Numbered from the whole stretch's first letter, positions 16,644 through 31,406 are shown. The stretch: 60,202 nucleotides of DNA, filler included, from Dehalococcoidia bacterium (GCA_040882355.1; 4 parts of 4 records of this genome joined end to end with filler, not necessarily neighbours in it); one strand, 5' to 3'. Program-made: numbers and translations. Notes: generated by a model from the letters alone, not told the origin.

Positions 16644-16743
16644 NNNNNNNNNNNNNNNNNNNNNNNNNNNNNNNNNNNNNNNNNNNNTTAATTAATTAAN
16701 NNNNNNNNNNNNNNNNNNNNNNNNNNNNNNNNNNNNNNNNNNN
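16644..16743. other. Artificial contig linker
   Basis: N run containing TTAATTAATTAA (stops in all frames). Confidence 0.98.
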
Positions 16744-16863
16744 CGCGTCGCGCGCACCGCCGCTGCCCAGGGCGAGCGCCGCCGTGAGGCCGACGCCGGC
16801 CAGCGTGAGGACGATCAGCGCCCAAACGAGGAGTCGCCGTGGCAATACCGTGCTGCCGGGCAT
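16744..16863 (-). CDS. N-terminal fragment of a secreted/membrane protein
   Basis: AGGAGG RBS, MPGSTVLPRRLLVWALIVLTLAGVGLTAALALG... Confidence 0.6.
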
Positions 16864-16961
16864 GCTTCGCCTCCTGTAGGCGTAGCGGTGGGGCGGGGGC
16901 TGGGCTACAGGGCGCTCAGGGCCACCAGTCGCTCACGGTATAGGGCACCGGCGCGAGGATG

Positions 16962-17474
16962 TCAAGGGGTCGGCGTGCCTTGTGGCTCGGGAGTTGGAGT
17001 GCTAGTCGGTATCGCGACGGTGATGATGCGACCGATGTCGTTGTCCTCCTCCGCCGTCGTAAAGCAGTCGACCTCGTAACGGCCCGCCTGCTCCGGCGCC
17101 CTGAAGTCCTGTTTGAGGTCGCCCAAAAGAGGCTCCGACTCTCCAACGGGCCCCCCATTCTCGTTGACGTTGAGCGGCAGCTCGAAAATGCGGGCCACCA
17201 GCCGGTCGTCGCGCTTCCCTACGCCATCGCGGAGCAGGTCGCAGGCCACCGTCATCAGCACAGGGTATGGCTGCTGGTACTCCAACGTGAGCGAAAGGGT
17301 GCCGCTGGGCCTGAAGTCGCCTGTGATCGAGAGGCCCCTGAAGATCTCGCTCTCCTCGGACTCCGGCGAGAAGTCGACGCCGCAGCCTGCGGCGACCAGC
17401 ACGGTCGCGAGAAGGGCGCCCAGGAGGAGCGGCCGCCCAAAGCGATGTCGCGAGGGTGCTTGGGGTCGGGTCAT
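16962..17474 (-). CDS. Hypothetical lipoprotein
   Basis: Signal with lipobox AAGC; Pro/Thr tail. Confidence 0.7.
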   Translation of the reverse strand: MTRPQAPSRHRFGRPLLLGALLATVLVAAGCGVDFSPESEESEIFRGLSITGDFRPSGTLSLTLEYQQPYPVLMTVACDLLRDGVGKRDDRLVARIFELPLNVNENGGPVGESEPLLGDLKQDFRAPEQAGRYEVDCFTTAEEDNDIGRIITVAIPTSTPTPEPQGTPTP

Positions 17475-17611
17475 GAGCGACGTTTCAGCCTAGCCGAGGC
17501 CCGGCGCGTGAACAAGCCGACGCCTCCGCCGGCGCGAAGACGGCGGCAAGGTGCGCATGTGCGCCGTCGCTTGACGGCGGTTCAGGCTGGCCGTAGGCTC
17601 AGCTTAGTACC

Positions 17612-18121
17612 ATGCTCCGACGCGTCCTGCCTGTGTTCCTCCTTGCGCTCTCGGCTGCGGCCGCCGTCGGGTTGGCGGCGTGCGACAACGCTTCGTCGGA
17701 CGCGTCGCCGACGGTCGATGACGGCGGCACTACGGTGCGGGTCGGCGACGGGCTGGCAATCAGGGCGGAGCTGGCGCTGACGCCCGCGCAACGGACGTTA
17801 GGCCTGGGCCAGCGCGACTCGCTGGCCAGCGGCGCCGGCATGCTCTTCGTCTTTCAGGAGCCCGACGAGCACACGTTTTGCATGTGCGGCATGCGCTTCC
17901 CGCTCGATTTCGTCTGGATAGGGCCGGACATGCGGGTGGTGGACCTCTCACGCGACGTCCCGCCGCCGGACGAGGCGAACGGCGAGCCTGCGAGCTTTCG
18001 TCCGAGCGAGCCGGTGCTCTACGTGCTCGAGATCAACGCGGGCCTGGTGGACGGCGCCGGCGTGCAGGTGGGTGACGCGGTAACCTTCGAGCCGGAGGTA
18101 TCGCCGGGACAGGCGTCGTAG
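17612..18121 (+). CDS. DUF192 family lipoprotein
   Basis: LAAC lipobox; GMLFVF, MRFPLDFVWI, YVLEINAG. Confidence 0.88.
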   Translation: MLRRVLPVFLLALSAAAAVGLAACDNASSDASPTVDDGGTTVRVGDGLAIRAELALTPAQRTLGLGQRDSLASGAGMLFVFQEPDEHTFCMCGMRFPLDFVWIGPDMRVVDLSRDVPPPDEANGEPASFRPSEPVLYVLEINAGLVDGAGVQVGDAVTFEPEVSPGQAS

Positions 18122-18125
18122 CATA

Positions 18126-18917
18126 GTGAACATAACGAACGATCTCAGCCAGCGAGCGAAGCGCCTGCTCCGGTCCGCCGTTCCGTGGCTGCTCGTCGTC
18201 GCGCTCGCACTCTTCGCATCGTGCGGCGACGATGGCGGCGAGGCCGATGGCAGTGTCGCGCCAACCGCGTCGCCGGGTGGGCCGCCACTGGAGGGCAGTC
18301 TGTTCGCCAACGCGAGCTTCGAGGAGGGGGAGGCGCCCTGGGTCTCGCTGGAGTCGTGGGGCACGCAGTTCGCCGTCAGCGACGACGTCGCGCACTCAGG
18401 CGGGCATAGCGCGTTCCTCGAGCTGCGTAGCGAGGGCGCCGAAGACCAGCCGGCGCGCGTGTTCGGCGTCGTACAGGAAGTGACGCCCGACGAGTTTCCG
18501 GACGTGGTCTCCGGCTACTACTACGTCGACCGCTGGGAGCCGGGCACGCCGAAGCAGTACATGCAGTTCGTCGTGATCGTGTTCGGCGCCGACAACATTC
18601 CGGCGGAGGCGGCGCCGGCGACGAATCACCAGATCCGCTACATTCTGGCCGGCGTCGACTCGCCGCCGATCGCGATCACCAACGCTCGTTTCGTCATGGT
18701 CGGCACCGGCGCACCGAAGCAGGGCGAGTGGGTGCGCTTCGAGCGCAACATCCGAGAGGACTTCGAACAGCTCTGGGGCTCGGTGCCGGAGGGGCACGAC
18801 TTCATCCGCATCCTTTTCGAGGCGCGCTGGGACGAGCGCGCTCCGGACGCGCCGGCGTCCGCGGCGGACGTGTACTACGACGATCTGTACGCGGGGCCCG
18901 CGCCCGTGACGCCGTAG
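18126..18917 (+). CDS. Hypothetical lipoprotein with CBM/galactose-binding-like fold
   Basis: FASC lipobox; NASFEE...W, AHSG, YYDDL typical of CBM4/9-like domains. Confidence 0.7.
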   Translation: MNITNDLSQRAKRLLRSAVPWLLVVALALFASCGDDGGEADGSVAPTASPGGPPLEGSLFANASFEEGEAPWVSLESWGTQFAVSDDVAHSGGHSAFLELRSEGAEDQPARVFGVVQEVTPDEFPDVVSGYYYVDRWEPGTPKQYMQFVVIVFGADNIPAEAAPATNHQIRYILAGVDSPPIAITNARFVMVGTGAPKQGEWVRFERNIREDFEQLWGSVPEGHDFIRILFEARWDERAPDAPASAADVYYDDLYAGPAPVTP

Positions 18918-19065
18918 CCGAGCCCCTTCCAACAGGCTGAAGCCTGTCCCGCAGAAGGCAGAGGTCGACCGCCGGCTGGAGTCGGCGGCATGCAGGCGAG
19001 GCTTCCAGCCTCGCCTATGGTGAGTGCGGGGCGGAACGGCGAGAACCCGTCGCGCAGGCGAGGCG

Positions 19066-19581
19066 CTAGCCCGTGGCCCCGCCGGCGGGCGCTACGTCGA
19101 CCGGCACGGTCGCCTCGTCGGCCCCCGCGCTGGCTGTGAGCTGCCAGCTCCCGGCCTGCGGGAAGACGAGGTTGACGACGTAGTAGCTACCGGCGTCGTC
19201 CTCGCCGGTGGGAGTCGCGCGCCGGGCCTCGAATTCGACCGACGCGCCGCCTCGCTCCGCTCTCAGCGGAAGCGATTCCTGCTGATAGCCGTTCGTGACG
19301 CGGAGGACGAGCTTGTAGGACTGGTCCGTTTGCACCGACGCGAACTGGTCGCTCGTGCGCCAGAAGATGGGGTCTTCGCCCGTCTCGTACGGCAGGTCGA
19401 GCGAGTTGCCGGACGTCGGGTCTGTCTCGCTTGCCGTTGGCGAGACGATGGTGACGCTGACCGCTTCGGTCGGCGTCACCGCGGCCTCGCTGGCTGGCTC
19501 GTGATCGTCGCACGCGACGGCGACCGTGAGGGCGAGGAGCGTCGCGGCGAGCAGGAGAGCGGTCCGTATCTGCGATCTCAT
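19066..19581 (-). CDS. Hypothetical lipoprotein, Ig-like (YtkA/FixH-like) C-terminus
   Basis: AVAC lipobox; YVVNLVFPQAGSWQLTA; downstream of and co-directional with the mauF-like gene. Confidence 0.7.
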   Translation of the reverse strand: MRSQIRTALLLAATLLALTVAVACDDHEPASEAAVTPTEAVSVTIVSPTASETDPTSGNSLDLPYETGEDPIFWRTSDQFASVQTDQSYKLVLRVTNGYQQESLPLRAERGGASVEFEARRATPTGEDDAGSYYVVNLVFPQAGSWQLTASAGADEATVPVDVAPAGGATG

Positions 19582-19603
19582 CGTCTCAGTATAACGCCGG
19601 GTT

Positions 19604-20392
19604 TTACGAGAGGAGCGGAGCGACGAGGAGGTAGGCGGCGAACGCGCCGAGGGCGACTCCGGTCACCTGGTGGACGTGCGGCGCGAGTGCGATCAGCCGC
19701 TGGTTGAGGTCCGCGACGTCGCCGGGCTCTTTGCAGTTGGCGCTGCTGTAGATCGCGAAGGCGCGTGTTGCGCCGTAGACCAGGCCGGCGAGCGCTCCGT
19801 AGACGACGTTGCCGGAGACGAAGAGCCAGGCGAGCATGATCGGGAAGCTGGCGTAGGGCACCCTTGTGAAGACGCCGAAGCCGACGGTCCCGCCGAAGAT
19901 GACCGCGCTCCGATAAAACGTGCCGTGCACCCAGCTCGCGGGGACCTGCCAGTCGCGGCCGGGTACCGGCAGGCGCAGGAAGCCAAGCTCGTGGGCGGCG
20001 TAGACGAGCGAGACAGCGCCCAGCGCGATCGCGAGCGGTACCGTCGCGTCCGGCCAGAGGGCCTCGACGCCCCAGCCGGCTGTCGCGACGAGGACGCCGG
20101 TGGTCATGCCCGCCACCGTCATCGCGAGGGCGTAGACGGTTGCGCGCTGCAGCCAGCGCCGGTAGGTCTGAGTCCCTTCCACGAAGGGAGCGATCGTAAA
20201 GATCGCGTTGTGGCCTCAGGCGCTGCAGGTCTGGGCCAGGCCGACCAGCGCGGCAAGGGCGAGGCCGAGGCCGGCGGCGCCCGCCTCCCACGACAGTCCG
20301 GCTGTCGCGGCGGCGAGCGCCAGGCCCAGCGCCAGCCCGAGCGCGAGCAAGAGGGCGTGCCTGGCGTTGGTGAGCTGTTCCGCTCGGATCAT
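19604..20392 (-). CDS. MauF/CcdA-like polytopic membrane protein with in-frame TGA (probable selenocysteine at codon 59)
   Basis: ATG 20392 MIRAEQL...GLAQTCSA-TGA(20218-20216)-GHNAIFTIAP continues in frame into the 19604..20182 ORF; WQVPASW and GFGVFTRVP motifs. Confidence 0.72.
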
Positions 20393-20443
20393 AGTCTCAG
20401 TGTAGCCGTTCCGGCGAGGCCGTGGCCCCGCTGCTACGGCTCC

Positions 20444-20806
20444 TCAGCCCGGGCAGAACTGGGGGTTGTTGTGGTAGTCGCTGCCGCAGCCGCAGATGCC
20501 TTCCGGGCAGACGCAGTCGCAGCAGGTGACGGTGTCCGTCACCCAACAGCCGGAGGCGTAACCGACCCAGAACATGCAGGGCTTGGCGCAGACGCCGCCG
20601 GAGCTACAGCGTTCGCAGGCGCAGGGCAGGCTCGGGAAATCGCAGACGGTGGGAAAGCTGCCGGCGCTGGCCGGGCGCCCCTGCGTCGCCACGCCCGCCG
20701 CGGCGCCGAGGAGAGCGCCCATCGCCGTCTGCGCGCCGCGCCCGAATAGGCCGCGACGGGTCGTGTGGCGGGCGAGGCCTTCGCTAGCGCGTTGGAGCAG
20801 GCTCAC
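20444..20806 (-). CDS. Tat-exported Cys-rich peptide (MauA-like), paralog 3
   Basis: TRRGLFG twin-Arg; 14 Cys; SGCWV...TCCDC...DYHN. Confidence 0.85.
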   Translation of the reverse strand: MSLLQRASEGLARHTTRRGLFGRGAQTAMGALLGAAAGVATQGRPASAGSFPTVCDFPSLPCACERCSSGGVCAKPCMFWVGYASGCWVTDTVTCCDCVCPEGICGCGSDYHNNPQFCPG

Positions 20807-20830
20807 GGGCGAACACTGATTGCTCGCGCC

Positions 20831-21220
20831 CTACGGGCAGAACAGGGGGTTGTTGTGGTAGTCGCCTCCACAGCCGCACCAGCCGTCCCCCGCGACCGCG
20901 GGACAGACGCAGTCGCAGCAGGTGACGAGAGCATTCAGGTCTGTGTTGAACACGACCCAGCAACCGGAGGCATAGTACTCGGTCAAGATCATGCATGGCT
21001 TCGCGCAGACGCCGCCCGAGCTGCAGTTGTTGCAGGGGCAGGGCGGACCGGGGAACTGGCAGAACGTGGTGAGTCCGGCGCTCGCCGGGTTCGTTTGGGC
21101 CAGGGAGCCTGCCGCGGCGCCGAGCAGCGCGCCGGTGGCCACCGTTACGCCCCGCCCGAACAGCCCCCGACGGCTGGTCCTGCGGGCGAGTCCCTCACTG
21201 ACGCGGCGCAGAACCTCCAT
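20831..21220 (-). CDS. Tat-exported Cys-rich peptide (MauA-like), paralog 2
   Basis: SRRGLFG; same 14-Cys pattern. Confidence 0.87.
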   Translation of the reverse strand: MEVLRRVSEGLARRTSRRGLFGRGVTVATGALLGAAAGSLAQTNPASAGLTTFCQFPGPPCPCNNCSSGGVCAKPCMILTEYYASGCWVVFNTDLNALVTCCDCVCPAVAGDGWCGCGGDYHNNPLFCP

Positions 21221-21223
21221 CGA

Positions 21224-21604
21224 TTACGGCTTGATGCAGTTGTGCGGGTCGTTGTGGTAATCGGTGCCGCAACCGCAGATGTCGTAGCCACCAAAGCCGT
21301 TGCAGTCGCAGTCGCAGCAGGTGACATTTCCTACGACCCAACAGCCCGAGGCGTAGTAGACCGTCATGATGATGCACGGCTTCTTGCAAACGCCGTTGTT
21401 GCAGCCGTCGCAGTGGCAGCCGGGGCCGGGAAAGGAGCAGACTGTGTTGTAGATATGCCTCGCTCCCACGCGGTCCGCCTGGGTTACCGCGCCGGCCGCG
21501 GCGCCGATCAGGGCGCCAGTCGCGACCTCCGCGCCCCGGCCGAAGAAGCCGCGGCGGCTGGTCTTGCGGGCGAGTCCCTCACTGACGCGTTGTAGTAGGT
21601 CCAT
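21224..21604 (-). CDS. Tat-exported Cys-rich peptide (MauA-like), paralog 1
   Basis: AGGAGG RBS; SRRGFFG; same 14-Cys pattern. Confidence 0.87.
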   Translation of the reverse strand: MDLLQRVSEGLARKTSRRGFFGRGAEVATGALIGAAAGAVTQADRVGARHIYNTVCSFPGPGCHCDGCNNGVCKKPCIIMTVYYASGCWVVGNVTCCDCDCNGFGGYDICGCGTDYHNDPHNCIKP

Positions 21605-21622
21605 GGTGCGCCTCCTCGTCTC

Positions 21623-22243
21623 CTAATGGCCTTCGGTTGCTACGGGCTCCCCGCCTCCGGCGGGCAGGCGGCGCGCCTTCGCGCCGTTCGTGTGATCGCC
21701 GAGCTTCGCTGCACTAAGCAGCATATCGAGATGCTGGCGGTTGTTCGCGAGGCCCTTGGCCTGGACCACGCCCTCAGCGTCGAGCATGTGGGCGAAGGGC
21801 GTGACCCGTACCTTGAACTGGTCGGGTAGCGACTCGTCCGGGTGGACGGCGACGGTGACTTCTACGGCGTTCTCCTCGGCGAAGCGCTGCGTGAGCTCGA
21901 GCTCGCCGCGGCTCAGGAAGAGCACCCGCAGGTCGCCGGCGTACTCCTGGGCGAAGGCGTTCAGGTCCGGGATGAGCGCCTTGCACGGCGCGCACGAGGG
22001 CGAGCCGAAGACCAGGAGCAGCGGCAGCCCGCGGAAGTCCGCGAGCGAGAGTCCGCGACCGTCGAGCGCCTGGACGGCGAACTCAGGGGCGGCCGTGCCC
22101 GGCGCGAGGCCGTCGCGCGCAACGCCCTGCGCGGTACCCAGGTACATCATGCCGAGCTGACGCAGCAGCAAGAAGACGACTGCGCCCTGGAGGAAGACGA
22201 TCCCCCACAGGACGATGTAGCTGATCAGCCATGGACCGCTCAT
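21623..22243 (-). CDS. mauD: MauD-like membrane-anchored thioredoxin
   Basis: N-terminal TM + LLRQLG, GLAPGTAAP, CAPC, TPFA, KGLANNRQHL. Confidence 0.85.
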   Translation of the reverse strand: MSGPWLISYIVLWGIVFLQGAVVFLLLRQLGMMYLGTAQGVARDGLAPGTAAPEFAVQALDGRGLSLADFRGLPLLLVFGSPSCAPCKALIPDLNAFAQEYAGDLRVLFLSRGELELTQRFAEENAVEVTVAVHPDESLPDQFKVRVTPFAHMLDAEGVVQAKGLANNRQHLDMLLSAAKLGDHTNGAKARRLPAGGGEPVATEGH

Positions 22244-22920
22244 GCCGTGCGCTCCATCTCGATCGTCGTCTCGTCGATGTGGGCGGTCGGGCGGTGCCCG
22301 TTGCTGCTGTGGTTGTGGCCGGTGACCTGCGTGCGCTGCGTTTGCGAGAAGATCGCGCGGAAGGCCGCGGCCTCCGGCAGCAGGATCAGCGCGTCGAAGA
22401 CGACGCCGGCGATCAGCACGACGGGGATGACTTCGCTGACCGGCGGCAGGTCGGCGCTGGAGCCAAAGAGCGCGTACTCGAGCGAGCCGAAGCGGCTGGC
22501 GCCCAGCGCGACGACGAGCGCCATGCTGGCGAAGATCAGCGATCGCAGGAGCGCCGTCGCGCCGATCGGGTCGGCCTGCACCGCGCCGAAGCAGTGGCAG
22601 TCGAGCTCGCGGCCGCGCTGAAGGTTGACGCCAATGGCGAAGGTGAAGCTGAGGAAGAGCGGCACGGCGATGCCGGCGGCGACGCCTGTGCCGAACCCGA
22701 CGAGCAACAGCACGCCGAGTGCGGTCTCGATCCAGGGCACGGCGGCCGCGAAGGGCCGGGCGAGCGTCGCGGGCAAGACCTCGTACTCGGCGACGGCCTG
22801 GCGGAAGCTCGCTCGATCGACGAGCTTCGATACGCCGGCAAGGAGCAAGACGCCCCCCAGCACCAGCCGCAAGAAGAGCTGGATGTGGGGCTGCGACAGC
22901 GCTTCGATCGGGTACGACAT
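22240..22920 (-). CDS. mauE: MauE/DoxX family redox-associated membrane protein
   Basis: LRLVLGGVLLLAGVSKL, VPWIE, RGRELDCHCFG; start MSYPIE at 22920. Confidence 0.87.
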   Translation of the reverse strand: MSYPIEALSQPHIQLFLRLVLGGVLLLAGVSKLVDRASFRQAVAEYEVLPATLARPFAAAVPWIETALGVLLLVGFGTGVAAGIAVPLFLSFTFAIGVNLQRGRELDCHCFGAVQADPIGATALLRSLIFASMALVVALGASRFGSLEYALFGSSADLPPVSEVIPVVLIAGVVFDALILLPEAAAFRAIFSQTQRTQVTGHNHSSNGHRPTAHIDETTIEMERTA

Positions 22921-22943
22921 GATCCCTCCGCCCGCCTCGACGC

Positions 22944-23855
22944 CTACGCGCTCGCCGACCGGTAGCCGGTCAGGTGGCTCCCGCTTCCGGCGACCTGCAG
23001 CAGGTAGAAGCGACCGTCCTCCTCGCCGAGGGGAAGGTAGCCGGCGGCGCTGAGCTGCAGGAGCGGTAGGGCGGGGTTGGCGCCATCGAGCATGTCGGAC
23101 CAGACGGCCCGCTGCGCCGCGCCGATGACGATCTGGTTGTAGCGCACCGTCGCCGTGCGGGCGAAGGAGCGGTCGGCGGCGCGGGTGAGCGAGAGCGTGG
23201 GGCTCAGGCGCCGCGACAGGTCTTCGGTCGGGTCGAGCAGCGTGCCGGACAGGATCGAGAGCGAGGCCCACATCGGCTCGGCGCGGTCGGCGGCCAGCGC
23301 CAGGCGGTCGCCGGTCTCGCGGTCGAGCATGAGGTTGAGCATCGCGTGGGAGCCGGCGCCGTTCAGCTTGGAGGGCGTGAGCACCTCGGTGCGCAGGCCG
23401 GTGTCCGGTCGCTTCGTCAGGTCGTAGTGCTGCTTGAGCAGCCCTTCAGGGTCGAACTGGAAGCGTGGGAAGCGCCAGGCCGTGTTGTTGGAGTAGAGCA
23501 GGACCTGGGCGAGCTGGTCGCCCCCGGGGTAGTCGCGGAAGAAGAACTCCGCGCCCGCTTCCTGCACGGCCAGCGGCCGGCTGCGGATGGCGGCGGCGGC
23601 CGGCGCCCAGCAGCAGACCTCGCTCAGCTCGTGCGCGAGCCCGCTATCGCCCGCCCAACGGGCGGCATCGACGGCGCGCGTGCGCAGGCTATCGATGCTG
23701 TACGGGCCTTCGGCCGGCCCGCCTCCCGCCTGGCCACCCGCGAGCGAGCCCGCAGAAGAGGCGGCGAAGCTGCGGAGCGGTGCCATGCGGGTCAGCCCCA
23801 GGCCGACCATAGCTGCTCCCAGTGTCGTCAGGAATCCGCGTCGTGTACAGGACAT
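22944..23855 (-). CDS. Tat-signal hypothetical protein, first gene of mau-like operon
   Basis: TRRGFLTTLGAA twin-Arg signal; GGAGG RBS; no recognisable family. Confidence 0.75.
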   Translation of the reverse strand: MSCTRRGFLTTLGAAMVGLGLTRMAPLRSFAASSAGSLAGGQAGGGPAEGPYSIDSLRTRAVDAARWAGDSGLAHELSEVCCWAPAAAAIRSRPLAVQEAGAEFFFRDYPGGDQLAQVLLYSNNTAWRFPRFQFDPEGLLKQHYDLTKRPDTGLRTEVLTPSKLNGAGSHAMLNLMLDRETGDRLALAADRAEPMWASLSILSGTLLDPTEDLSRRLSPTLSLTRAADRSFARTATVRYNQIVIGAAQRAVWSDMLDGANPALPLLQLSAAGYLPLGEEDGRFYLLQVAGSGSHLTGYRSASA

Positions 23856-24159
23856 GACCTAACCTCCCGCCCCCGGCTTTCGCCGGGTACGCTCCCCTAC
23901 GCTCGTGTCGGTTGCGTCTATTCTACCACCTCTGTCAAGAGAACGACATAACCGGTCTGGATGTAACCCAGGCATGGCACCCGAGCATTCGCGGCCCCTT
24001 GCCCAAGGCAGCACCCTCTTTACCGATCATCGACCCAGGATGGCTGAGAACGAACCCCGGGCGATTCGCCCCTCGCTGACGGCAAGTTCGAGGTGCTGAT
24101 TCCGGCAGATCGCTGGTTCCGAAGGGCAGCGACGCCGGCGACGCTGGTATACTGCGGTC

Positions 24160-24423
24160 GTGACCTCTGTGAATGGACCGGCGTTGGCCATCGAGAACGA
24201 GGCGCTCGTGCTCGACCTGGTCGAGTGGATCGCCGAGAGGCCGCGGACCTACGCCGACACGATAGACGCCTGGCGGACATCGTGCCCCCGTCTGTCGATC
24301 TGGGAGGACACGCTCGACCATGGGTTCGTGGCATGCGAGCATCGCGGCGGCTCCGACGTGATCGTCAATGTGACACCTGCCGGGCTAGCGCTTCTCAAAC
24401 GCAGCGGGCGAGGAGACTCGTAG
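24160..24423 (+). CDS. Small conserved hypothetical protein (wHTH-like)
   Basis: LDLVEWI...AWRTSCPRLSIWED...VTPAG; start uncertain. Confidence 0.65.
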   Translation: MTSVNGPALAIENEALVLDLVEWIAERPRTYADTIDAWRTSCPRLSIWEDTLDHGFVACEHRGGSDVIVNVTPAGLALLKRSGRGDS

Positions 24424-24493
24424 GGCCGGAGGCGGACTGCGTTCGCAACGGCTGGCGGGACTGATCGAGAAATCGGGTAGAATCGTATCTCGT

Positions 24494-24568
24494 GGGCCCG
24501 TAGCTCAATGGCAGAGCAGCGGACTTTTAATCCGACGGTTGAGGGTTCGAGCCCCTCCGGGCCCCCCA
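24494..24568 (+). tRNA. tRNA-Lys(UUU)
   Basis: GGGCCCG acceptor, D-arm GCTC/GAGC, loop CTTTTAA, GTTCGA T-loop, encoded CCA. Confidence 0.95.
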
Positions 24569-24571
24569 AGG

Positions 24572-25561
24572 TCAGTCAGTACCCACGAGCTCCGCGTCCG
24601 GCGGGTCGGGTACCAGGGACTCCGCGAAGCGATCGTCGCCGGTGACGTGCACCTTCAGGAACACGGTCCCGTAGCGATTGATCAGCTCGTGCCCGCGAGC
24701 CTCGGGCAGCGCGTCCGTGCAGCCGAGGCAGTGGTCGATGAACGAGAGGTGGTGGCCCTCCGGCAGCAGCACGTAGTGGGTGATCGTCGCGACGGCTAGC
24801 GCGTCGTACAGGTTGTCGACCTCGTCCTTCGGCACGATCTCGTCCTTGCTACCGGCGATGACCATCACCGGCGCTCGGACGTCTGCCGCCACTGGGATCA
24901 GCGACTCCGGGAGGCCGGGCGCCAGCGACACCGCGGCGTCGAACTGCCCGTCTGGCGCGACAGACACGGCCGTCCAGCCGCCGAACGAGTGGCCGGCGAT
25001 GGCGGTGCGCTCCGGGTCGACGAGAGGGCCGAGGGGCTCGGTCCCGTCATCGTGCAGCGTCACCATCTCGTCGAGAATGAACGCGACATCGCCCGGCCGC
25101 TCCTGCGCGGACGCGGCGATGTTCTGCGCGTCGCACAGCACACAATCGTCTGTGGTGTTACCGGGATGCGGCGGCGACGCGACGACGAAGCCCCAGGAGG
25201 CAAGGTGCCCCGTGAAGAAGCTCTGGTTCTCCAGCATGCCACCGCTGCCGTGCGAGAAGATCACCAGCGGGAACGGCCCGTCGTCGGTCGCAGGCGCCTC
25301 GTCGGTGACGGCGCCGGCTGCGCCCTCCGCCGGATACCAGATCCAGGTCTCCATCGCGCGCGGGGTGGCGTCGGCGGTGGACGGCCGCGTGGAAGTCATC
25401 TTCGTCACGCCGACGGCGTACGGCCCGGTCCCGCCGGGATCGCCGAAAAAATCGCTCTCGCCGTCGCCCGAACCGCCGCCCAAGTCGCACGCGGCGTTCA
25501 AGAGACAGGCGATTGCGAGGAACGGCACCGCGACGATGGCAAGGGGGAGGCGTCCGATCAC
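24572..25561 (-). CDS. Alpha/beta hydrolase lipoprotein (dienelactone hydrolase/PAF-AH-like)
   Basis: FSHGSGG, GHSFGG nucleophile, D and H of triad; NAAC lipobox; probable GTG start. Confidence 0.85.
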   Translation of the reverse strand: MIGRLPLAIVAVPFLAIACLLNAACDLGGGSGDGESDFFGDPGGTGPYAVGVTKMTSTRPSTADATPRAMETWIWYPAEGAAGAVTDEAPATDDGPFPLVIFSHGSGGMLENQSFFTGHLASWGFVVASPPHPGNTTDDCVLCDAQNIAASAQERPGDVAFILDEMVTLHDDGTEPLGPLVDPERTAIAGHSFGGWTAVSVAPDGQFDAAVSLAPGLPESLIPVAADVRAPVMVIAGSKDEIVPKDEVDNLYDALAVATITHYVLLPEGHHLSFIDHCLGCTDALPEARGHELINRYGTVFLKVHVTGDDRFAESLVPDPPDAELVGTD

Positions 25562-25581
25562 GTTCCTAACCCCAATCCGGC

Positions 25582-26490
25582 TTACGCCCTCTCGATGTAG
25601 CCGAGCTCGATGATCCCGTAGCCGACGCGATCGCCAGAGCGGTAGCGGGCGAAGCCGTCCTTGCACCACGTCTGGCCGAACCGCGTCGGCGCGATCGCGA
25701 GTACCTCTTCGCCGATGATGTGGTGCTCCCGCTGCCGCTCGTCGACCAGGTGCAGCTCGACGCCGGTCTGGCGGGTGCCGCCGTCCGTCGCCCGCACGTC
25801 CATGCGCACCTCTGCCAGGTCCATCACCTCGTGCCCGTCCCAGAGGCCGCCGATGAAGATCTTCGTCTCGCCGAGCGTGACGCGCACCGCGTTGAACCAG
25901 AAGTCCCTGCCGAACTCTCCGCTCAGATAGTCCCAGCGCGGCAGGCGCGACCAGTCTCGCTCGTCGCCCCAGGTGTGGTCGCGGTGGCCGAAGCAGTCAA
26001 GCGGGTACGTCGCGCCGCCGAGCGTCATCGTGCCCGTCACCACGCCCGCGTGCTCGATGTGACCTGCGGGTCGGAGCGCTTCCGCTTCCGGCTGCGGCGC
26101 ATGGTTCGGATAGAGGTAGGTGGGACTCATGCCCTGCCAGGTCACGTCCATCTTGTGGGCACCGTGCGCGTAGCGCAGCCGGAAGCCCGCGAGCGGCTCC
26201 TCCCAGACGATCTCCATCGCGCCGAGCGCGAGGCGCCGGTCTTCCATCGGCGGAAGCGGCGCGTGCTGGTCGATCAGGCTGTGGACGATCTCGCCCTGGC
26301 GCACGAGATGCAAGTAGATGTTCGCGTGGTCGCTGTTCGGATAGTTCCCGATCCTCACCGTCACCCCGATCTCGACCTGGGGGTCGTAGAAGGCGAACCA
26401 GAAGCTCTCGTTCCAGAGCGGCCGCCTGTCGGAGCCGGGTAGGTGCCGGCGGTCGTCTTCGATCGTGGCCATGTGCACGGCGCTCGCCAT
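25582..26490 (-). CDS. Hypothetical beta-barrel (tocopherol cyclase/lipocalin-like) protein
   Basis: WNESFWF, GHIEHAG, GHRDHTWG motifs; operon with APH and SDR genes. Confidence 0.7.
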   Translation of the reverse strand: MASAVHMATIEDDRRHLPGSDRRPLWNESFWFAFYDPQVEIGVTVRIGNYPNSDHANIYLHLVRQGEIVHSLIDQHAPLPPMEDRRLALGAMEIVWEEPLAGFRLRYAHGAHKMDVTWQGMSPTYLYPNHAPQPEAEALRPAGHIEHAGVVTGTMTLGGATYPLDCFGHRDHTWGDERDWSRLPRWDYLSGEFGRDFWFNAVRVTLGETKIFIGGLWDGHEVMDLAEVRMDVRATDGGTRQTGVELHLVDERQREHHIIGEEVLAIAPTRFGQTWCKDGFARYRSGDRVGYGIIELGYIERA

Positions 26491-26502
26491 CGATCCCTCC
26501 TC

Positions 26503-27576
26503 TCAGCTTGCCTGGAACGGGATGTCGAGCAACGCGGCCAGCCGTCGCGTGATCGGGCTGTCCAGTCCGTTGCCCGGCGATTGCGCGGGCGCGCTCAAGC
26601 GTCGCAACTGACGGTAGAGGCTGACCATGATCACGCCGAACCGCAAGCCCGCCATCACCTCGTGGTAGAAGAGGTGCTCCGTCTTGCGGGCGGTAAGCTC
26701 CTCGTAGCGGCACACGGTTTCGTTTCGATCGGGGAGCCCTGGCAGGCGAGCGACGCCGTGGCCCTCGCTGTGGTGCCAGTCGAGGAAGAGCCACCACGCC
26801 AGGTCGGCCTCCGGGTCGCCAAGGAACGCCATCTCCCAGTCGAGCGCGCCGGCGACGTCGTTGTCGCGGAAGATGATGTTGGGCAGGCGCGCATCGCCCC
26901 AGCAGAGGGCGACGCGCGCTGGCGTGAAGCGATGCTCTCGAAGCCAGCGCAGGGCGGCGTCGAGGACCGGCTCGGGCTCGTCTTGCTGCGCCCAGCGCAG
27001 GAAGCTCTCGTAGTAGTCGATCTGCCGATCCAGCGGGTCGGTCCCGGCGCCCGGTACGCGGAGGAAGGACAGGCCCAGCGCCTGCCAGTCGACGGAGTGG
27101 ATGCGCGCAAGCGTCTCGACGCCGCGCCACCACATCTCCTCGCGCGCATCGGGCGTGGCGTCGGCCAGGACGCCCGTCGTGTGGTAGAAGGGGACATCGG
27201 GTGGCACCTCGCCTTCGATACGGTCCATCACGTAGAACGCTCTGCCGACCACGCCTTGGTCCTCTTCGAGCCAGCGCACCGTGGGGACGGCGATGCCTGT
27301 GTCGATCAGACATCGCATCACGCGGACTTGCCTGGCGAGGTCGTACTCGGGGAAGACGCGCACGTCGCGCGGCTCCAGCCGGAACACCAGGCGCTCCGCG
27401 CGCTCCTCGCCGCGCTCCCGCCACGCGAGGTCGGCGAGCAACGTCTCGTTCGAGAAGCCGGCGCCCGGCTTGGTCAGCGACGACAGGCGAACGTCATCGG
27501 CGTCCGGCAGCTTGCCCACGAGCCACTCGGACAGGCTCGCGCGGATCGTCTCCATGTCGCGTTGCTGGGCAACCAC
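26503..27576 (-). CDS. Phosphotransferase (APH/ACAD10-like) family protein
   Basis: GFSNET, WGDARLPNI, LDWEM, GDPEADLAW. Confidence 0.9.
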   Translation of the reverse strand: MVAQQRDMETIRASLSEWLVGKLPDADDVRLSSLTKPGAGFSNETLLADLAWRERGEERAERLVFRLEPRDVRVFPEYDLARQVRVMRCLIDTGIAVPTVRWLEEDQGVVGRAFYVMDRIEGEVPPDVPFYHTTGVLADATPDAREEMWWRGVETLARIHSVDWQALGLSFLRVPGAGTDPLDRQIDYYESFLRWAQQDEPEPVLDAALRWLREHRFTPARVALCWGDARLPNIIFRDNDVAGALDWEMAFLGDPEADLAWWLFLDWHHSEGHGVARLPGLPDRNETVCRYEELTARKTEHLFYHEVMAGLRFGVIMVSLYRQLRRLSAPAQSPGNGLDSPITRRLAALLDIPFQAS

Positions 27577-27583
27577 GTCCCGC

Positions 27584-28492
27584 CTACTGGAACCCCATAA
27601 CGAAGCCGTCCTTGATCGGCTCGCGCTGTTCGAAGAACGGCCCCATCGCCTCCACGAGCCCATCTACGGTCCACGCACCCTCGGCGTCGAAGCTCTGCGC
27701 GACGGTTGGGCCGGCGAGCACGGACGCGCGGTTGCCGTAGATGATGAACACCTGGCCGGAGACTCGCTCCGCCGCCCGCGACGCGAGGAAGCCGACCAGC
27801 GGCGCGACGTTCTCAGGCGCGAACGCGTCGAAGCCCTCCTCCGGCTTATTGAACATGCCGCCGCCGATGGCCTCGGTCATGCGGGTGCGCGCTCGCGGGC
27901 AGATCGCGTTGGCGGTGACGCCGTAACGCTGGCAGGCCTGCGCCGTCGCCATCGTCAGCGCAGCGATGCCGGCCTTCGCCGCCGCGTAGTTCGGCTGGCC
28001 CGCCGAGCCGAGCAGGAACGCCTCGGACGCCGTGTTCACGATCCGGCCGTAGACCGGCCCGTTCTGCTCCTTGGCGCGGTCTCGCCAGTAGGCGGTCGCC
28101 CAGCGCGTGGTGCAGAAGTGGCCCTTCAGGTGCACGCGAATGACGCCGTCCCACTCCTCCTCCGACATCGTGAAGACCATCCGGTCGCGCAGGAAGCCGG
28201 CGTTGTTGACGAGGATGTGGAGGTCGCCGAAGGTGTCCAGGGCGGTGTTGATCAGCTTCTCGGAGTCGTCCCAGTTGGCAACGTCGCCGTAGTGAGCGAT
28301 CGCCTCGCCTCCGGCGCCGGCGATCTCGTCGACGACCTGCTGGGCCGGGCTCTCGCTGCTTCCCGAGCCGTCCGCCTCGACTCCCAGGTCGTTCACCACG
28401 ACCCGGGCGCCCAGCTTGGCGAGCTGCAACGCCTCCACCCGGCCGAGCCCTCGGCCAGCTCCCGTGACGATCGCGACCTTCCCCTCTAGCAT
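27584..28492 (-). CDS. SDR family oxidoreductase (3-oxoacyl/hydroxyacyl-CoA type)
   Basis: TGAGRGLG, NNAG, YAAAK. Confidence 0.93.
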   Translation of the reverse strand: MLEGKVAIVTGAGRGLGRVEALQLAKLGARVVVNDLGVEADGSGSSESPAQQVVDEIAGAGGEAIAHYGDVANWDDSEKLINTALDTFGDLHILVNNAGFLRDRMVFTMSEEEWDGVIRVHLKGHFCTTRWATAYWRDRAKEQNGPVYGRIVNTASEAFLLGSAGQPNYAAAKAGIAALTMATAQACQRYGVTANAICPRARTRMTEAIGGGMFNKPEEGFDAFAPENVAPLVGFLASRAAERVSGQVFIIYGNRASVLAGPTVAQSFDAEGAWTVDGLVEAMGPFFEQREPIKDGFVMGFQ

Positions 28493-28551
28493 GCGGCGTC
28501 TCCTCCTCTTACGCGCTCAACTCGCGGGCTGAGCGCCAGAATCGCGTCCCG

Positions 28552-28580
28552 TTGACTTCGCAAGTAGGCAAGCGTACCAT
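28552..28580 (+). promoter_or_regulatory. Sigma70-type promoter of P450 operon
   Basis: TTGACT-N17-TACCAT. Confidence 0.55.
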
Positions 28581-28650
28581 GATACCCGCCGCCAATTCGC
28601 GATGTCGAGAGCGCGAAACGCGGCGCAAGCCGGAAGCGAGGGATGGATAG

Positions 28651-29913
28651 TTGAAGCTGGAAGAGATAAACCTGCTCGACCTGGACCGCTTCGTCGAGGG
28701 CGTCCCCTTCGAGGAGTTCGCGCTGCTCCGGGCCGAAGCGCCGGTCTACCTGCATCCCGAGCCCGACGGCGGGCCGGGGTTTTGGGTGATCACCACGTAC
28801 CACGACATCGTCACCGTCTCGCAGGACTGGGCGACGTACTCGTCCGCGCAGGGCGTCGTCGGCCTCTCGCGCGCCGAGCGCCAGTACGGCGGCGACGACG
28901 CCGACCCCGAAGCGGGCGGGCCTGCCGCAGAGGGCGCCCAGCTCATGATGCTCAACATGGACCCACCGAAGCACACGAAGCTGCGAAAGCTCGTCAACAC
29001 CGGCTTCACGATGGCCCGCATCAACAGGCTCGAGGAGGCGGTGCGCAAGGTGACGACGGAGATCCTCGACAGGGTCGCGGACCGCGGCGAGTGCGACTTC
29101 GTCACCACCATCGCCGCCGAGCTGCCGCTGCAGGTGATCGCCGAGCTGATGGGCATCCCGCAGGAGGACCGGCACAAGGTCTTCGACTGGAGCAACCGGA
29201 TGATCGGCAGCGCCGACGAGGAGTTCCACTCGGCCGGCGGCGGCCCGCTCCAGGCGAGCATGGAGATGTTCGCCTACGCGGAGGAGCTCGCCACGAAGCG
29301 CCGCACAGAACCGCGAGACGATCTGATCAGCGTGCTCCTGGGCGCCGAGGTCGACGGCGAGCAGCTCACGCCGCTGGAGATCGACGTCTTCTTCCTCCTC
29401 CTCGCCGTCGCCGGCAATGAGACGACGCGCAACTTGATCGCCGGCGGGATGATCGCGCTGTTCGAAAGCCCCGATCAGTGGCAGCGCCTCCTCGATGACC
29501 CGTCGCTCTGCACCAGCGCCGTCGAGGAGATGCTGCGCTGGGTGACGCCGGTAATGTACTTTCGCCGCACCTCGACGCATGACATGGAGGTGCAGGGCCA
29601 GCAGATCAAGGAGGGCGACAAGGTGTCGCTCTGGTATATCTCCGGCAACCGCGACGAAGAAGTCTTCCCACACGCCGATCAGTTCGACGTCGGCCGCAGC
29701 CCGAACATGCACATCGCGTTCGGCGGCGGCGGGCCGCACAACTGCCTGGGCCTCAATCTCGCGCGTCTCGAGATCAAGGTGATGTTCGAGGAGCTGCTCC
29801 GCCGCATGCCGGACCTGGAGCAGACCGGACCGGCCGCCCGCCTCCGCTCCAACTTCATCAACGGCGTCAAGCACCTGCCGGTGAAGTTCACGCCCGCCAG
29901 GGTGCCCGCGTAA
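28651..29913 (+). CDS. Cytochrome P450 (CYP125/124-like)
   Basis: AGNETT, EMLR, FGGGGPHNCLG heme motif. Confidence 0.95.
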   Translation: MKLEEINLLDLDRFVEGVPFEEFALLRAEAPVYLHPEPDGGPGFWVITTYHDIVTVSQDWATYSSAQGVVGLSRAERQYGGDDADPEAGGPAAEGAQLMMLNMDPPKHTKLRKLVNTGFTMARINRLEEAVRKVTTEILDRVADRGECDFVTTIAAELPLQVIAELMGIPQEDRHKVFDWSNRMIGSADEEFHSAGGGPLQASMEMFAYAEELATKRRTEPRDDLISVLLGAEVDGEQLTPLEIDVFFLLLAVAGNETTRNLIAGGMIALFESPDQWQRLLDDPSLCTSAVEEMLRWVTPVMYFRRTSTHDMEVQGQQIKEGDKVSLWYISGNRDEEVFPHADQFDVGRSPNMHIAFGGGGPHNCLGLNLARLEIKVMFEELLRRMPDLEQTGPAARLRSNFINGVKHLPVKFTPARVPA

Positions 29914-29921
29914 CGGCGCGA

Positions 29922-30236
29922 ATGTCGGACTTCGTGAAGGTCGCTGACCTGGCGGAGGTGCCGTCCGGCGAGATGGTGCTCGTCGACCTCAACGGCGAGG
30001 AAGTCGCGCTCGCGAACGTCGACGGCGCGATCTACGCCGTGAGCGACACCTGCACGCACATGGCAGGCCGTCTCTCCCAGGGCATGCTCGAAGGCGCGAT
30101 CGCGACCTGCCCGCTCCACTCGGGCCAGTTCGACGTCCGCACCGGCGAAGTCGTGAGCGAGCCGCCCGACGAGCCGCTTCGCACCTATCGGGTCGTAGTC
30201 AACGACGCCGGCGAGATCCTCGTCGCAGTTGACTAG
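29922..30236 (+). CDS. Rieske-type [2Fe-2S] ferredoxin
   Basis: CTH...CPLH ligands. Confidence 0.93.
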   Translation: MSDFVKVADLAEVPSGEMVLVDLNGEEVALANVDGAIYAVSDTCTHMAGRLSQGMLEGAIATCPLHSGQFDVRTGEVVSEPPDEPLRTYRVVVNDAGEILVAVD

Positions 30237-30238
30237 CG

Positions 30239-31396
30239 ATGGACTACGGCTGGGCGCAGGAGTACGTCGACTTCAGAGAAAAGGTGCGCGCCCTCGTCGA
30301 CGAGCACGACTCGCCGGAGATCCACCTCGAGTACTCGCAAGAGGACCGGCGCGGCCCGCGCACGGCGGCCTTTCGCAAGGCGCTCGACGGGCGCGGCTGG
30401 CTCCGCATGTGCTGGCCCGTGGAGTACGGCGGCGAAGGCAAGTCGCCGTGGTACCAGTTCATTCTCATCGAGGAGTTGGAGTACCGCGCCATGCCGTACG
30501 GCCTGCTCAGCGTCACGTCGGTAGCGCCCGCAATCATGGCCTACGGCAGCGACGAGCAGAAGAAGCGGTACATGCCCGGCATCTGGGACGGCTCGGTCAG
30601 CTTCGCCATCGGTTACACGGAGCCCGAAGCCGGCACCGACCTCGCGTCGCTGCAGACGCGCGCCGTCCGCGACGGCGACGACTGGGTGATCAACGGCCAG
30701 AAGATCTTCACATCAGGGGCGCATTCGGCGACGCACGTCTGGCTCGCGGCGCGCACCGATTCCGACGCGCCCAAGCATCGCGGCATCTCGATGTTCATCG
30801 TGCCGATCGACGCGCCCGGCGTCACGATCACGCCGATGTACACGATGTCCGGCCTGCGCACGAACCAGACGTTCTACGACGACGTGCGCGTCTCCAGCGA
30901 CGCCCTCGTCGGCGAGGAGAACCGCGGCTGGTACATCGTCGCGCATGCGCTCAACCACGAGCGCGTTGGCCTCGCGCCGACGGGCGGCCTCGGCCGCAGC
31001 TTCGATGCGCTGGTGCAGTACCTGCGCGAACGACGCCCCGAGGCGCTCGAGGACCCGCAGGTGAGAATGCGACTCGCCGAGATGCGGATGGAGGTCCACG
31101 TCCAGCGCGCCCTGGCAACGACGAACGGTTCGATCATCGCGAACGGCGGCACGCCGACGATGGAGGCTTCGATGGCGAAGGTCTGGAGCAGCGAGCTGCG
31201 CCACCGACTGCACAGCCTCGCCATGGACCTGCTCGGCCGCTACGGCGGGTTGACGCGCGAGTCCGGCGATCTTGCGCCCGCGAACGGCCGGCTGGAGATG
31301 ATTTATCGCACGTCGCCCATCCTACGCTTCGGCGGCGGCACGAACGAGATCCAGCGCTCGATCATCGCGCAGCGCGGCCTCGGCCTGCCGCGATGA
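30239..31396 (+). CDS. Acyl-CoA dehydrogenase (catalytic subunit of heteromeric pair)
   Basis: GYTEPEAGTDLASL, NGQKIFTS, LNHER, GGGTNEIQR. Confidence 0.93.
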   Translation: MDYGWAQEYVDFREKVRALVDEHDSPEIHLEYSQEDRRGPRTAAFRKALDGRGWLRMCWPVEYGGEGKSPWYQFILIEELEYRAMPYGLLSVTSVAPAIMAYGSDEQKKRYMPGIWDGSVSFAIGYTEPEAGTDLASLQTRAVRDGDDWVINGQKIFTSGAHSATHVWLAARTDSDAPKHRGISMFIVPIDAPGVTITPMYTMSGLRTNQTFYDDVRVSSDALVGEENRGWYIVAHALNHERVGLAPTGGLGRSFDALVQYLRERRPEALEDPQVRMRLAEMRMEVHVQRALATTNGSIIANGGTPTMEASMAKVWSSELRHRLHSLAMDLLGRYGGLTRESGDLAPANGRLEMIYRTSPILRFGGGTNEIQRSIIAQRGLGLPR

Positions 31397-31406
31397 GCCG
31401 CTAACG

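Follow-up and report, generated by a model that had tools for sequence, protein, structure and literature searches.

An eight-gene operon of the uncultured Dehalococcoidia bacterium GCA_040882355.1 appears rather likely to encode a mau-type cassette dedicated to oxidative folding outside the cytoplasm, in which MauE, MauD and an apparently selenocysteine-containing MauF homologue would serve a new, disulfide-knotted exported client. The stretch of DNA analyzed (the window; 60,202 nucleotides, filler included) is made up of four contigs joined by runs of N, with the operon on the contig at window positions 16744–32879. From 23855 to 19066 on the minus strand, all eight genes run in one direction with intergenic gaps of –4 to 51 nt, and the MauD-like gene overlaps the stop of the MauE gene. 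A sequence-only reading of this DNA had described a co-directional operon of a Tat protein, mauE, mauD, three peptides, a mauF-like gene and a lipoprotein. All eight genes were recovered (Table 1); the mauF-like gene is present and is a homologue of MauF, but it had been read too short, with an in-frame TGA overlooked.

Table 1. Genes and features of the operon and its neighbors, in window coordinates.
Feature	Position	Strand	Description
TatP303	22944..23855	-	303 aa; first gene of the operon; M-S-C-T-R-R-G-F-L; no known family
MauE	22240..22920	-	DsbB-like membrane protein, motif C-H-C-F-G; PF07291
MauD-like thioredoxin-fold protein	21623..22243	-	hydrophobic N-terminus, C-A-P-C; TIGR02661 below cut-off
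Client copy 1	21224..21604	-	126 aa; putative MauA-type twin-arginine leader and ~75-aa core, 14 Cys
Client copy 2	20831..21220	-	129 aa, 14 Cys
Client copy 3	20444..20806	-	120 aa, GTG start, 14 Cys
MauF homologue	19604..20392	-	262 codons with one in-frame TGA (putative U59; motif C56-S-A-U59)
In-frame TGA, proposed selenocysteine codon	20216..20218	-	conserved TGA in the MauF homologue
Candidate SECIS, two adjacent 6-bp hairpins	20174..20206	-	+13..+29 and +31..+45 after the TGA
Lipoprotein	19066..19581	-	final operon gene, 171 aa, outside known families; lipobox ...V-A-V-A-C-D
Lipoprotein-like neighbor	18126..18917	+	263 aa; convergent; PF11249 (DUF3047) weak, 22.4 bits, below cut-off
DUF192 neighbor	17612..18121	+	convergent; PF02643, 93.7 bits

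The synteny survey that the sequence-only reading had called for found the cluster in 12 further genomes, and the order TatP303-MauE-MauD-client (one to three copies)-MauF-lipoprotein is kept in 12 loci of other species (Dehalococcoidia/Chloroflexota genomes). The TatP303 gene is present in 9/9 related loci with enough upstream sequence, and the lipoprotein gene in 11/11 loci extending that far. Linkage of the client to MauE, MauD and MauF holds at all loci of sufficient extent, save for MauF in L015, where no homologue lies between the clients and the lipoprotein. The DUF192 gene and the gene with the weak DUF3047 match each adjoin the operon in 10 of the 12 loci. Within a sample of 401 genomes of the phylum, a strong match to the client was obtained in one genome and a strong match to TatP303 likewise in one, the window's own, compared with 128 genomes holding a MauE above cut-off. 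The client is as rare as TatP303 and co-restricted with it; an ‘orphan’ MauE, which had been regarded as special, is ordinary in this phylum.

The three client copies in the window are 61–64% identical pairwise and share 14 invariant cysteines, in agreement with the earlier description of three paralogous 14-Cys peptides. The single tryptophan that they were said to have in common (S-G-C-W-V) was confirmed, and the same 14 cysteines and tryptophan are invariant across 62 family members. These 62 sequences have 29 invariant columns; K75, W89 and D98 never vary, and D115 and H117 hardly do. Among 115 database homologues, 109 have 14 cysteines, six have 16 and none has an odd number, and the 25 copies encoded at the loci have either 14 (22 copies) or 16 (three copies). 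A cysteine count that is always even fits disulfides. Copy number varies from one to three per locus and the copies of one genome mostly cluster together, which points to recurrent duplication or conversion. The client matched nothing in Pfam, NCBIfam or PDB sequences, its structure model was poor (pLDDT 56.8), and the Foldseek search with it was uninformative. It begins with a long twin-arginine leader that has a conserved stretch before R-R, as in MauA. Assignment to Tat is a reading of motifs (T-S-R-R-G-F/L-F-G; M-S-C-T-R-R-G-F-L) without a model match; TatC is encoded in the window's genome. Aligned by hhalign, the leaders of the client and of MauA gave 85–87% probability over 28–32 columns with a score of 30.1, the controls scoring 16.4 (TatP303 leader) and no more than 13 (30 column shuffles). 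The MauA leader scores 24.4 against that of TatP303, and the resemblance of the client leader to MauA seems to stand only moderately above that of a generic Tat pair.

The identities proposed for mauE and mauD held. MauE matched PF07291 with 87.9 bits, compared to a Pfam gathering cut-off of 27 (104.2 bits in the six-frame search), and is 34% identical to MauE of Paracoccus denitrificans, L-D-C-H-C-F-G aligning with I-D-C-G-C-F so that CXC falls on CXC. The MauD-like protein is 33% identical to P. denitrificans MauD over 189 residues, with its CXXC motif S-C-A-P-C aligned to S-C-P-V-C. TIGR02661 is the best of its 13 NCBIfam matches and covers model positions 4–181 of 189, at 76.1 bits and thus below the equivalog cut-off of 188.6; its best tblastn matches on plasmids are annotated MauD proteins of amine dehydrogenase operons. 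According to the accessible part of a preprint (Gonzalez et al., bioRxiv 10.64898/2026.03.05.709764), MauE replaces DsbB as disulfide generator through a CXC active site followed by F-G, an activity demonstrated for two other MauE proteins, and MauA occurs in only 10.2% of MauE-bearing species. The window's genome holds a single recognizable MauE, that of the operon, and neither DsbB nor VKOR was found in it. Since the operon MauE is the only recognizable disulfide generator of this genome, it could be a housekeeping oxidase that just happens to adjoin its heaviest client.

The frame of the MauF homologue, previously taken as two ORFs, comprises a 58-codon ORF, a TGA, 11 codons and a 192-codon ORF. 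The TGA is present in 11/11 loci, the following 33 nt stay in frame and are conserved as protein, and the supposed start codon downstream of the TGA is GTC or GTT in six of the 11. At the aligned site, seven other Chloroflexota loci have TGA (six) or TGC (one, L039), and true MauF (L022, L025) has TGC/TGT. In an hhalign comparison to MauF (97.0% probability, E 9e-11, 155 columns), U59 fell on the cysteine of MauF's S-P-C-G-Y, meaning that this conserved cysteine is replaced here by a TGA codon, giving S-A-U-G-H if selenocysteine is inserted: a variant rather than a loss. True MauF itself matches no Pfam or NCBIfam model. Because the TGA is kept throughout and is aligned to MauF's conserved cysteine, it very probably encodes selenocysteine, and the MauF homologue is apparently a selenoprotein with the motif C-S-A-U. 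The window's genome encodes tRNA-Sec, SelA (464 bits), SelB (wing domain, 67.8 bits) and SelD (373 bits). SelA was found in eight of 12 cluster-bearing genomes, which may be incomplete, with two of the eight showing fragments, and is in any case common across the phylum (231/301 genomes). In the candidate SECIS hairpins, 98.3% of cells are paired, compared with 35–55% when the pairing is slid; two pairs show compensatory changes, 12 of 500 shuffles were equally good and the hairpins lie inside coding sequence. The fold has an MFE of –20.1 kcal/mol with a z of –2.2 in the window and of –0.7 to +0.3 elsewhere, each being a single fold, and Rfam gave no match to the candidate element.

The locus is not a TTQ amine dehydrogenase. 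Profile searches found no MauA, MauB or MauG in the window's whole genome, which is 93.9% complete, and PF02975 (MauA) had no six-frame match there, with the positive control working. MauB and MauG were likewise not found in any of the 12 further cluster-bearing genomes, hence 0/13 in all. No member of the client family matched PF02975 (0/62 at E≤10), and only one tryptophan is invariant. The sequence-only reading had noted no mauB or mauG in the contig piece and had named their presence elsewhere in the genome, together with a TTQ/CTQ cofactor in the peptides, as evidence against its view; its observation was borne out and extends to the whole genome. Its suggested profile check for kinship of the peptides with MauA was negative. 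What stands of its central idea, that Mau folding machinery has been repurposed, is the set of small-subunit helpers without the dehydrogenase and the even cysteine counts; the RiPP-like, metal-binding or toxin-like roles that it proposed found no direct support.

The remaining two proteins belong to no known family. TatP303 matched no Pfam or NCBIfam model, and its homologues amount to no more than 11 of 1.84 billion representatives at E≤1e-3. Its AF2 model (pLDDT 80.4, pTM 0.83) is mostly alpha-helical with no beta-propeller, Foldseek against the PDB returned nothing at E≤1e-3, and the best VIA fold match, an Rhs immunity protein, has a Z of 6.9, below the tool's meaningful level for helical proteins. 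The lipoprotein had no match in Pfam, NCBIfam or PDB sequences.

The closest known arrangement is the methylamine dehydrogenase cluster mauFBEDACJGMN of P. denitrificans PD1222 (NC_008688.1), which shares homologues of MauE, MauD and MauF, the order of large protein, E, D and small Cys-rich Tat client (annotated mauB-E-D-A) and the MauA-type leader on a Cys-rich client. It differs in having MauB, MauG, amicyanin, MauJ, MauM and MauN, none of which is encoded in the Dehalococcoidia operon, whereas the latter adds the helical Tat protein and the lipoprotein. MauA has 12 cysteines and two conserved tryptophans; the Dehalococcoidia client has 14 and one, occurs in one to three copies and has a core without detectable homology to MauA. 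The mauF gene heads the P. denitrificans cluster, whereas its Dehalococcoidia counterpart lies downstream of the clients with TGA for the cysteine codon. In its general scheme, the system might also be likened to the Dsb proteins of Escherichia coli, where DsbB-DsbA oxidizes and DsbD-DsbC isomerizes: both would have a membrane oxidant, a thioredoxin-fold carrier and possibly a second membrane redox protein. This is an analogy without membership by sequence, and it takes MauF to be a reductase.

The general idea of Mau helpers serving other Cys-rich clients has partial precedent in what is accessible of two sources. The generalist MauE of Gonzalez et al. shares the CXC-F-G motif, occurrence without MauA and an adjoining thioredoxin-fold partner; that part of the preprint names no client family, whereas here MauE belongs to a fixed operon with a particular client family and a MauF homologue. 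A link of MauE/MauD to Cys-rich precursors had already been proposed for Streptomyces (Kloosterman et al., 2020, PMC7794033), where decRiPPter candidates likewise place Mau helpers, without other mau genes, by small Cys-rich precursors. Those are candidates only, from another phylum and with other precursor families, and MauF, Tat and selenocysteine are not mentioned in the portion of the paper available. The literature searched held no description of the client family, TatP303 or the Chloroflexota Sec-MauF, and no characterized family covering them was found; the existence of such a family is what the sequence-only reading had named as telling against it.

In the folding cassette that we favor, the small pre-proteins encoded by one to three tandem client genes would be exported via Tat by their MauA-type twin-arginine leaders. 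MauD, a membrane-anchored thioredoxin fold with C-A-P-C, would introduce disulfides into the ~75-residue, 14-Cys core, and MauE (C-H-C-F-G), DsbB-like and probably quinone-linked to judge by other MauE proteins, would re-oxidize MauD. The MauF homologue with its C-x-x-U motif may form a second redox arm that most likely proof-reads or isomerizes the seven disulfides, so that the product would be a disulfide-knotted mini-protein. The client probably acts together with TatP303 and the lipoprotein on the external side of the membrane.

Other readings of the locus were weighed against this cassette. The least probable, and a very improbable one, is a metal-binding or iron-sulfur mini-protein that takes up its metal in the cytoplasm and passes through Tat already folded, with MauE/MauD/MauF acting on other substrates. 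Proteins that carry cofactors typically leave by Tat, the client core contains C-x-C, C-C and C-x-x-C motifs, and MauE/MauD, as the genome's only recognizable disulfide system, may be general. Yet the clients matched no ferredoxin or other metal-cluster family, their extra cysteines arise in pairs only, the linkage to MauE/MauD/MauF is kept save for MauF in L015, and MauA, which is Tat-exported too, is cofactor-free at export. Improbable as well, if not to the same degree, is a secreted antimicrobial or RiPP-like family of tandem precursors matured by MauE/MauD/MauF, for which TatP303 would be the immunity or binding protein. It would suit the varying copy number with its recurrent duplication or conversion, the occurrence of the same leader type before unrelated Cys-rich cores beside MauF homologues (other Chloroflexota; Nonomuraea) and the Rhs immunity protein as TatP303's best, though weak and sub-threshold, fold match; decRiPPter lists three candidate families that include mauE, with mauD present as well in one of the three, in the accessible part of that work (PMC7794033). 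Against this, the core is highly conserved, unlike fast-evolving toxins, and its conservation of 57–91% between species is a poor fit to a toxin. Moreover, the Pfam and NCBIfam matches of the operon proteins include redox helpers only, and neither a protease nor an ABC exporter nor another modifying enzyme, and ~75 residues after cleavage make a small protein, not a peptide.

The least improbable of the rivals, though still an unlikely one, is a divergent quinoprotein-type enzyme, with the client as a MauA-like small subunit bearing a cofactor derived from Trp (such as a Cys-Trp quinone on the invariant G-C-W) and TatP303 as a new large subunit in place of MauB. The order X-E-D-client parallels mauB-E-D-A, the leaders of client and MauA are alike, and in language-model features the client's nearest named clusters are all PF02975 MauA (score 0.96, 10/10 named matches). 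The invariant W89, D98 and K75 with the nearly invariant D115/H117, an interspecies conservation that is enzyme-like and the strict co-restriction of TatP303 with the client point the same way. However, the mature client has no detectable homology to MauA, with an hhalign probability of 0.4% and no MauA chain among the PDB sequence matches at E≤10 in addition to the failure of PF02975, there is just one conserved tryptophan and no MauG, the operon has no flavoprotein, cytochrome or cupredoxin gene, and the helical model of TatP303 lacks the beta-propeller. Doubtful as it is, this would make client and TatP303 the two subunits, small and large, of a new redox enzyme acting outside the cytoplasm, whose protein-derived cofactor forms on G-C-W without MauG, with Sec-MauF, MauD and MauE as the machine for cross-link and disulfides. 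The function of MauF has, to our knowledge, gone unexplained for decades; if such a redox enzyme were real, MauF would be a selenoenzyme that catalyzes the maturation of the cofactor or of the disulfides.

The operon lies on the second of four contigs in the window (contig C58), which belongs to a genome of 3.33 Mb in 82 contigs with completeness of 93.9% and contamination of 1.7%. Because these contigs are joined by N runs (16644-16743, 32880-32979 and 46571-46670, as paired runs of 44 nt), neighbourhood arguments are valid only within 16744-32879. Eight consecutive reading frames follow one another with intergenic gaps of -4 to 51 nt, and the remaining genes of the contig encode unrelated cytoplasmic enzymes (hydrolase, DUF7065/7064, APH kinase, SDR, P450 and acyl-CoA dehydrogenases). 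A scan for promoters and terminators gave no signal exceeding shuffles. Identical words, T-A-Y-A-C-T-G-A-G-A-C-K, stand directly 5' of the ATG of both the MauF homologue and the lipoprotein, and may be a common translation-initiation or processing signal.

Features of the operon and its surroundings, with their occurrence in 12 related loci
Feature	Window position	Strand	Description	Related loci
Operon	23855-19066	minus	eight reading frames
TatP303		minus	first gene; 303 aa, N-terminus M-S-C-T-R-R-G-F-L	9/12; remaining three cut by contig ends
TatP303 V-C-C-W	23611-23622	minus	residues 79-82
MauE		minus	follows TatP303	10/12
MauD-like		minus	follows MauE	11/12
Clients		minus	three small paralogues after MauD-like	12/12; 1-3 copies
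MauF homologue	19604-20392	minus	membrane protein after clients; 262-codon read-through frame, TGA at 20216-20218	10/12 (10/11 extending past clients); none between clients and lipoprotein in L015 (8372-8686)
58-codon ORF	20216-20392	minus	5' part of the read-through frame
Lipoprotein		minus	last gene	11/12; twelfth, L017, ends before it
Repeated word, MauF homologue	20393-20407	minus	directly 5' of ATG
Repeated word, lipoprotein	19582-19596	minus	directly 5' of ATG
263-aa protein			convergent	10/12
DUF192 protein			convergent	10/12
87-codon ORF	24160-24423		between tRNA-Lys and operon; no family match
tRNA-Lys (anticodon ttt)	24494-24568	opposite to operon	~640 nt upstream of operon

The gene order is kept in 12 loci of other species representatives, all of them Chloroflexota/Dehalococcoidia MAGs, in which tandem copies of the client, the putatively exported Cys-rich mini-protein, group mostly within their own genome. 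Across 401 evenly sampled genomes of the phylum, strong matches to the client family and to TatP303 came from the genome under study only, with three marginal rows (E 2e-4 to 9e-4) and one marginal row, respectively; MauF homologues were present in 14 genomes (including G227, flagged as unpublished) and MauE scored above its cut-off in 128 (including G227, G145 and G173). Most related loci also carry flanking genes missing from the window's contig (L010:1677-5637, L010:11507-13759, L019:10297-13032): two ketosynthase-like genes lie upstream and divergent, together with genes for an acyl-carrier protein and a cohesin-domain protein, and a gene for a protein of 750-910 aa, with a dockerin domain in L019, lies downstream. 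The flanking cohesin and dockerin genes look like a cohesin-dockerin pair in Dehalococcoidia. A PDB sequence search found no match for the lipoprotein or for the 263-aa neighbour.

The helper genes are recognisable homologues of the methylamine dehydrogenase maturation proteins. MauE, the single copy found in this genome, matched PF07291 with 87.9 bits (cut-off 27) and is 34% identical to MauE of P. denitrificans, its C-H-C-F-G aligning on C-G-C-F and matching the CXC-F-G pattern that Gonzalez et al. (bioRxiv 10.64898/2026.03.05.709764) give for the MauE active site. The best model for the MauD-like protein was TIGR02661 (MauD), at 76.1 bits (E 2e-21) and below the equivalog cut-off of 188.6. 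It is 33% identical to P. denitrificans MauD over 189 residues, with the CXXC aligned, and its top tblastn matches among plasmid records were annotated mauD genes within amine dehydrogenase operons. Neither DsbB nor VKOR was found in the genome.

The 192-codon ORF of the membrane protein that follows the clients has a 21-residue motif in common with MauF (62% identity), and its family aligned to MauF at 95.8% probability. A conserved 58-codon ORF precedes it, ending ...Q-T-C-S-A-TGA, and exactly 33 nt in frame separate the two. TGA as the stop and a spacing of 33 nt are shared by 11 of 11 loci; the 11 codons after the TGA differ synonymously and read G-[YH]-N-[AE]-I-[FY]-[TE]-I-[AS]-P-[FS]. 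In 6 of these 11 loci the downstream ORF would have to open with GTC or GTT, codons at which translation cannot begin. Taken by itself, the 58-aa ORF showed no alignment with the N-terminus of MauF (0.2% probability), whereas the read-through family aligned to MauF over 155 columns (97.0% probability, E 9e-11), with the TGA falling on the Cys of S-P-C-G-Y. This aligned site is TGC or TGT in true MauF and TGA in a Nonomuraea copy. Among 14 other Chloroflexota loci scanned, the site was reached in seven, with six TGA and one TGC (five and one of six when the unpublished G227 is left out); of the remaining seven, five have alignments that end before it and two were without a match.

The genome encodes tRNA-Sec, SelA, SelB and SelD. 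Of the 12 related genomes, which may be incomplete, just 8 yielded SelA, and SelA is common in the phylum (231/301, a tally that takes in genomes flagged as unpublished). Two 6-bp hairpins, a candidate SECIS in the 33-nt region 20174-20206, lie 3' of the TGA, at +13..+29 and +31..+45, where 98.3% of cells pair versus 35-55% when the positions are slid; they include two compensatory pairs, were equalled by 12 of 500 shuffles, gave a z of -2.2, and were without significance in single folds from other lineages. Rfam has no family near the TGA. It is very probable that this codon specifies selenocysteine and that the MauF homologue has the motif C56-S-A-U59. Because the TGA stands at the conserved Cys of MauF and is swapped for Cys codons in relatives, the residue would be redox-active, and we infer a redox role for the selenocysteine-containing MauF.

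The three client paralogues are 61-64% identical to one another. Of 319 candidates in a database search, 292 reached E<=1e-3, so that the family has at least that many members. Among the 120 listed, identity is 57-91%, every named one is a 'hypothetical protein', and the two with organism labels are Chloroflexi/Dehalococcoidia MAGs. Invariant in 62 aligned members are 14 Cys, W89, D98, K75-P76, F58-P59 and three Gly. An AF2 model of the client was too poor for use (pLDDT 56.8), and its Foldseek rows all had E>1 and no MauA chain. The sequence-only reading had proposed searching the peptides against MauA; PF02975 was matched by none of the 62 members at E<=10, and the family profile matched no MauA chain in the PDB. 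Against five MauA sequences, profile comparison aligned the leader alone (85% probability over 28 columns), and the mature parts gave 0.4% probability. Leader scores were 30.1 for client and MauA, 16.4 for client and TatP303, and 24.4 for MauA and TatP303, with 30 shuffles at or below 13; against these controls the client-MauA leader likeness is real but modest. In the ESM Atlas the nearest named neighbours of the client were MauA clusters (0.96), a lead only. The leader motif suggests that the client would be exported via Tat, and TatC is present in the genome.

Other small Cys-rich proteins adjoin MauF homologues in the Chloroflexota loci L030, L033 and L036 and, with MauE and MauD, in the Nonomuraea locus L024. 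They contain 8-18 Cys in unrelated cores and have a common leader type, ...L-S-E-x-[LF]-A-R-K-x-[SN]-R-R..., which suggests a leader-defined class of clients of which MauA may be one member. Proteins of 134-142 aa with 16-18 Cys (L033:583-1011, L036:3-407 and 591-1019) have MauE on one side and a MauF homologue that contains TGA on the other, and their leader, …L-S-E-S-F-A-R-K-F-N-R-R-K…, is of the same type. An unannotated stretch of Nonomuraea gerenzanensis (L024, record NZ_LT559118.1, 4761-10492) holds two adjacent Mau-like cassettes. One has MauE-like and MauD-like genes, a Tat protein with 12 Cys and the C-terminus C-G-C-K-S-T-T-H-Y, and a MauF homologue whose frame contains a TGA. The other, on the opposite strand, combines a second MauE-like gene with a second membrane protein and a further secreted protein rich in Cys.

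TatP303 had just 11 representatives at E<=1e-3 among 1.84 billion proteins. Its AF2 model is confident and mostly helical (pLDDT 80.4, pTM 0.83). Foldseek returned nothing at E<=1e-3 for this model, and the best row of a wide VIA search, an Rhs immunity protein (Z 6.9, 3.6 A rmsd, 132 aligned residues), lay below the tool's bar for helical proteins; in a sequence-profile search of the PDB no row had E below 0.5. Comparison with MauJ showed no likeness, and scans with P0126 and P0128 for the context of distant relatives returned no match. The V-C-C-W motif occurs in all 11 close orthologues and is absent from the six distant relatives; it could form a vicinal Cys pair beside a Trp and so a possible redox or cross-link site.

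We favour a mau-type oxidative-folding cassette serving a new disulfide-rich client, in which MauD and MauE would oxidise the client and the client would associate with TatP303. A new quinoprotein-like enzyme is an unlikely alternative reading of the system: the single Trp that the sequence-only reading had seen common to the peptides proved to be the invariant W89, and MauB and MauG, first noted as missing from the contig piece, were not found elsewhere in the genome either (MauG being searched as MauG/CCP). Neither was found in any of the 12 cluster-bearing genomes, nor was MauA found in this genome by a search that recovers the P. denitrificans gene. That the client is an antimicrobial or RiPP-like product seems slightly less probable again. 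Two published precedents are near to this system: a set of Streptomyces families, with mauE and mauD, that are candidate RiPPs (PMC7794033), and the work of Gonzalez et al. (bioRxiv 10.64898/2026.03.05.709764), in which MauE is a generalist oxidase.

A metal protein is the least probable of the three. All landmarks are present in 115 of the 120 listed database homologues; 109 of these 115 carry 14 Cys, six carry 16 and none carries an odd number. The 25 copies taken from the loci comprise 22 with 14 Cys and three with 16. These always-even counts fit seven or eight disulfides. A literature search, made largely outside subscription journals, found nothing on a selenocysteine MauF or on the client family.

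To our knowledge, MauD, MauE and MauF, and MauF above all, have long been known solely as ill-understood helpers of the small subunit of one enzyme. Here the three accompany an unrelated, strongly conserved Cys-rich client without a dehydrogenase, which argues that together they are a portable folding kit, one that a leader type defines. Both the client family and the 303-aa protein that partners it are new, and they would represent a compact system for studying how a predicted seven-disulfide protein forms outside the cell, in a genome without detected DsbB or VKOR; and the proposed redox-active residue at the TGA/Cys site makes the role of MauF a testable question.
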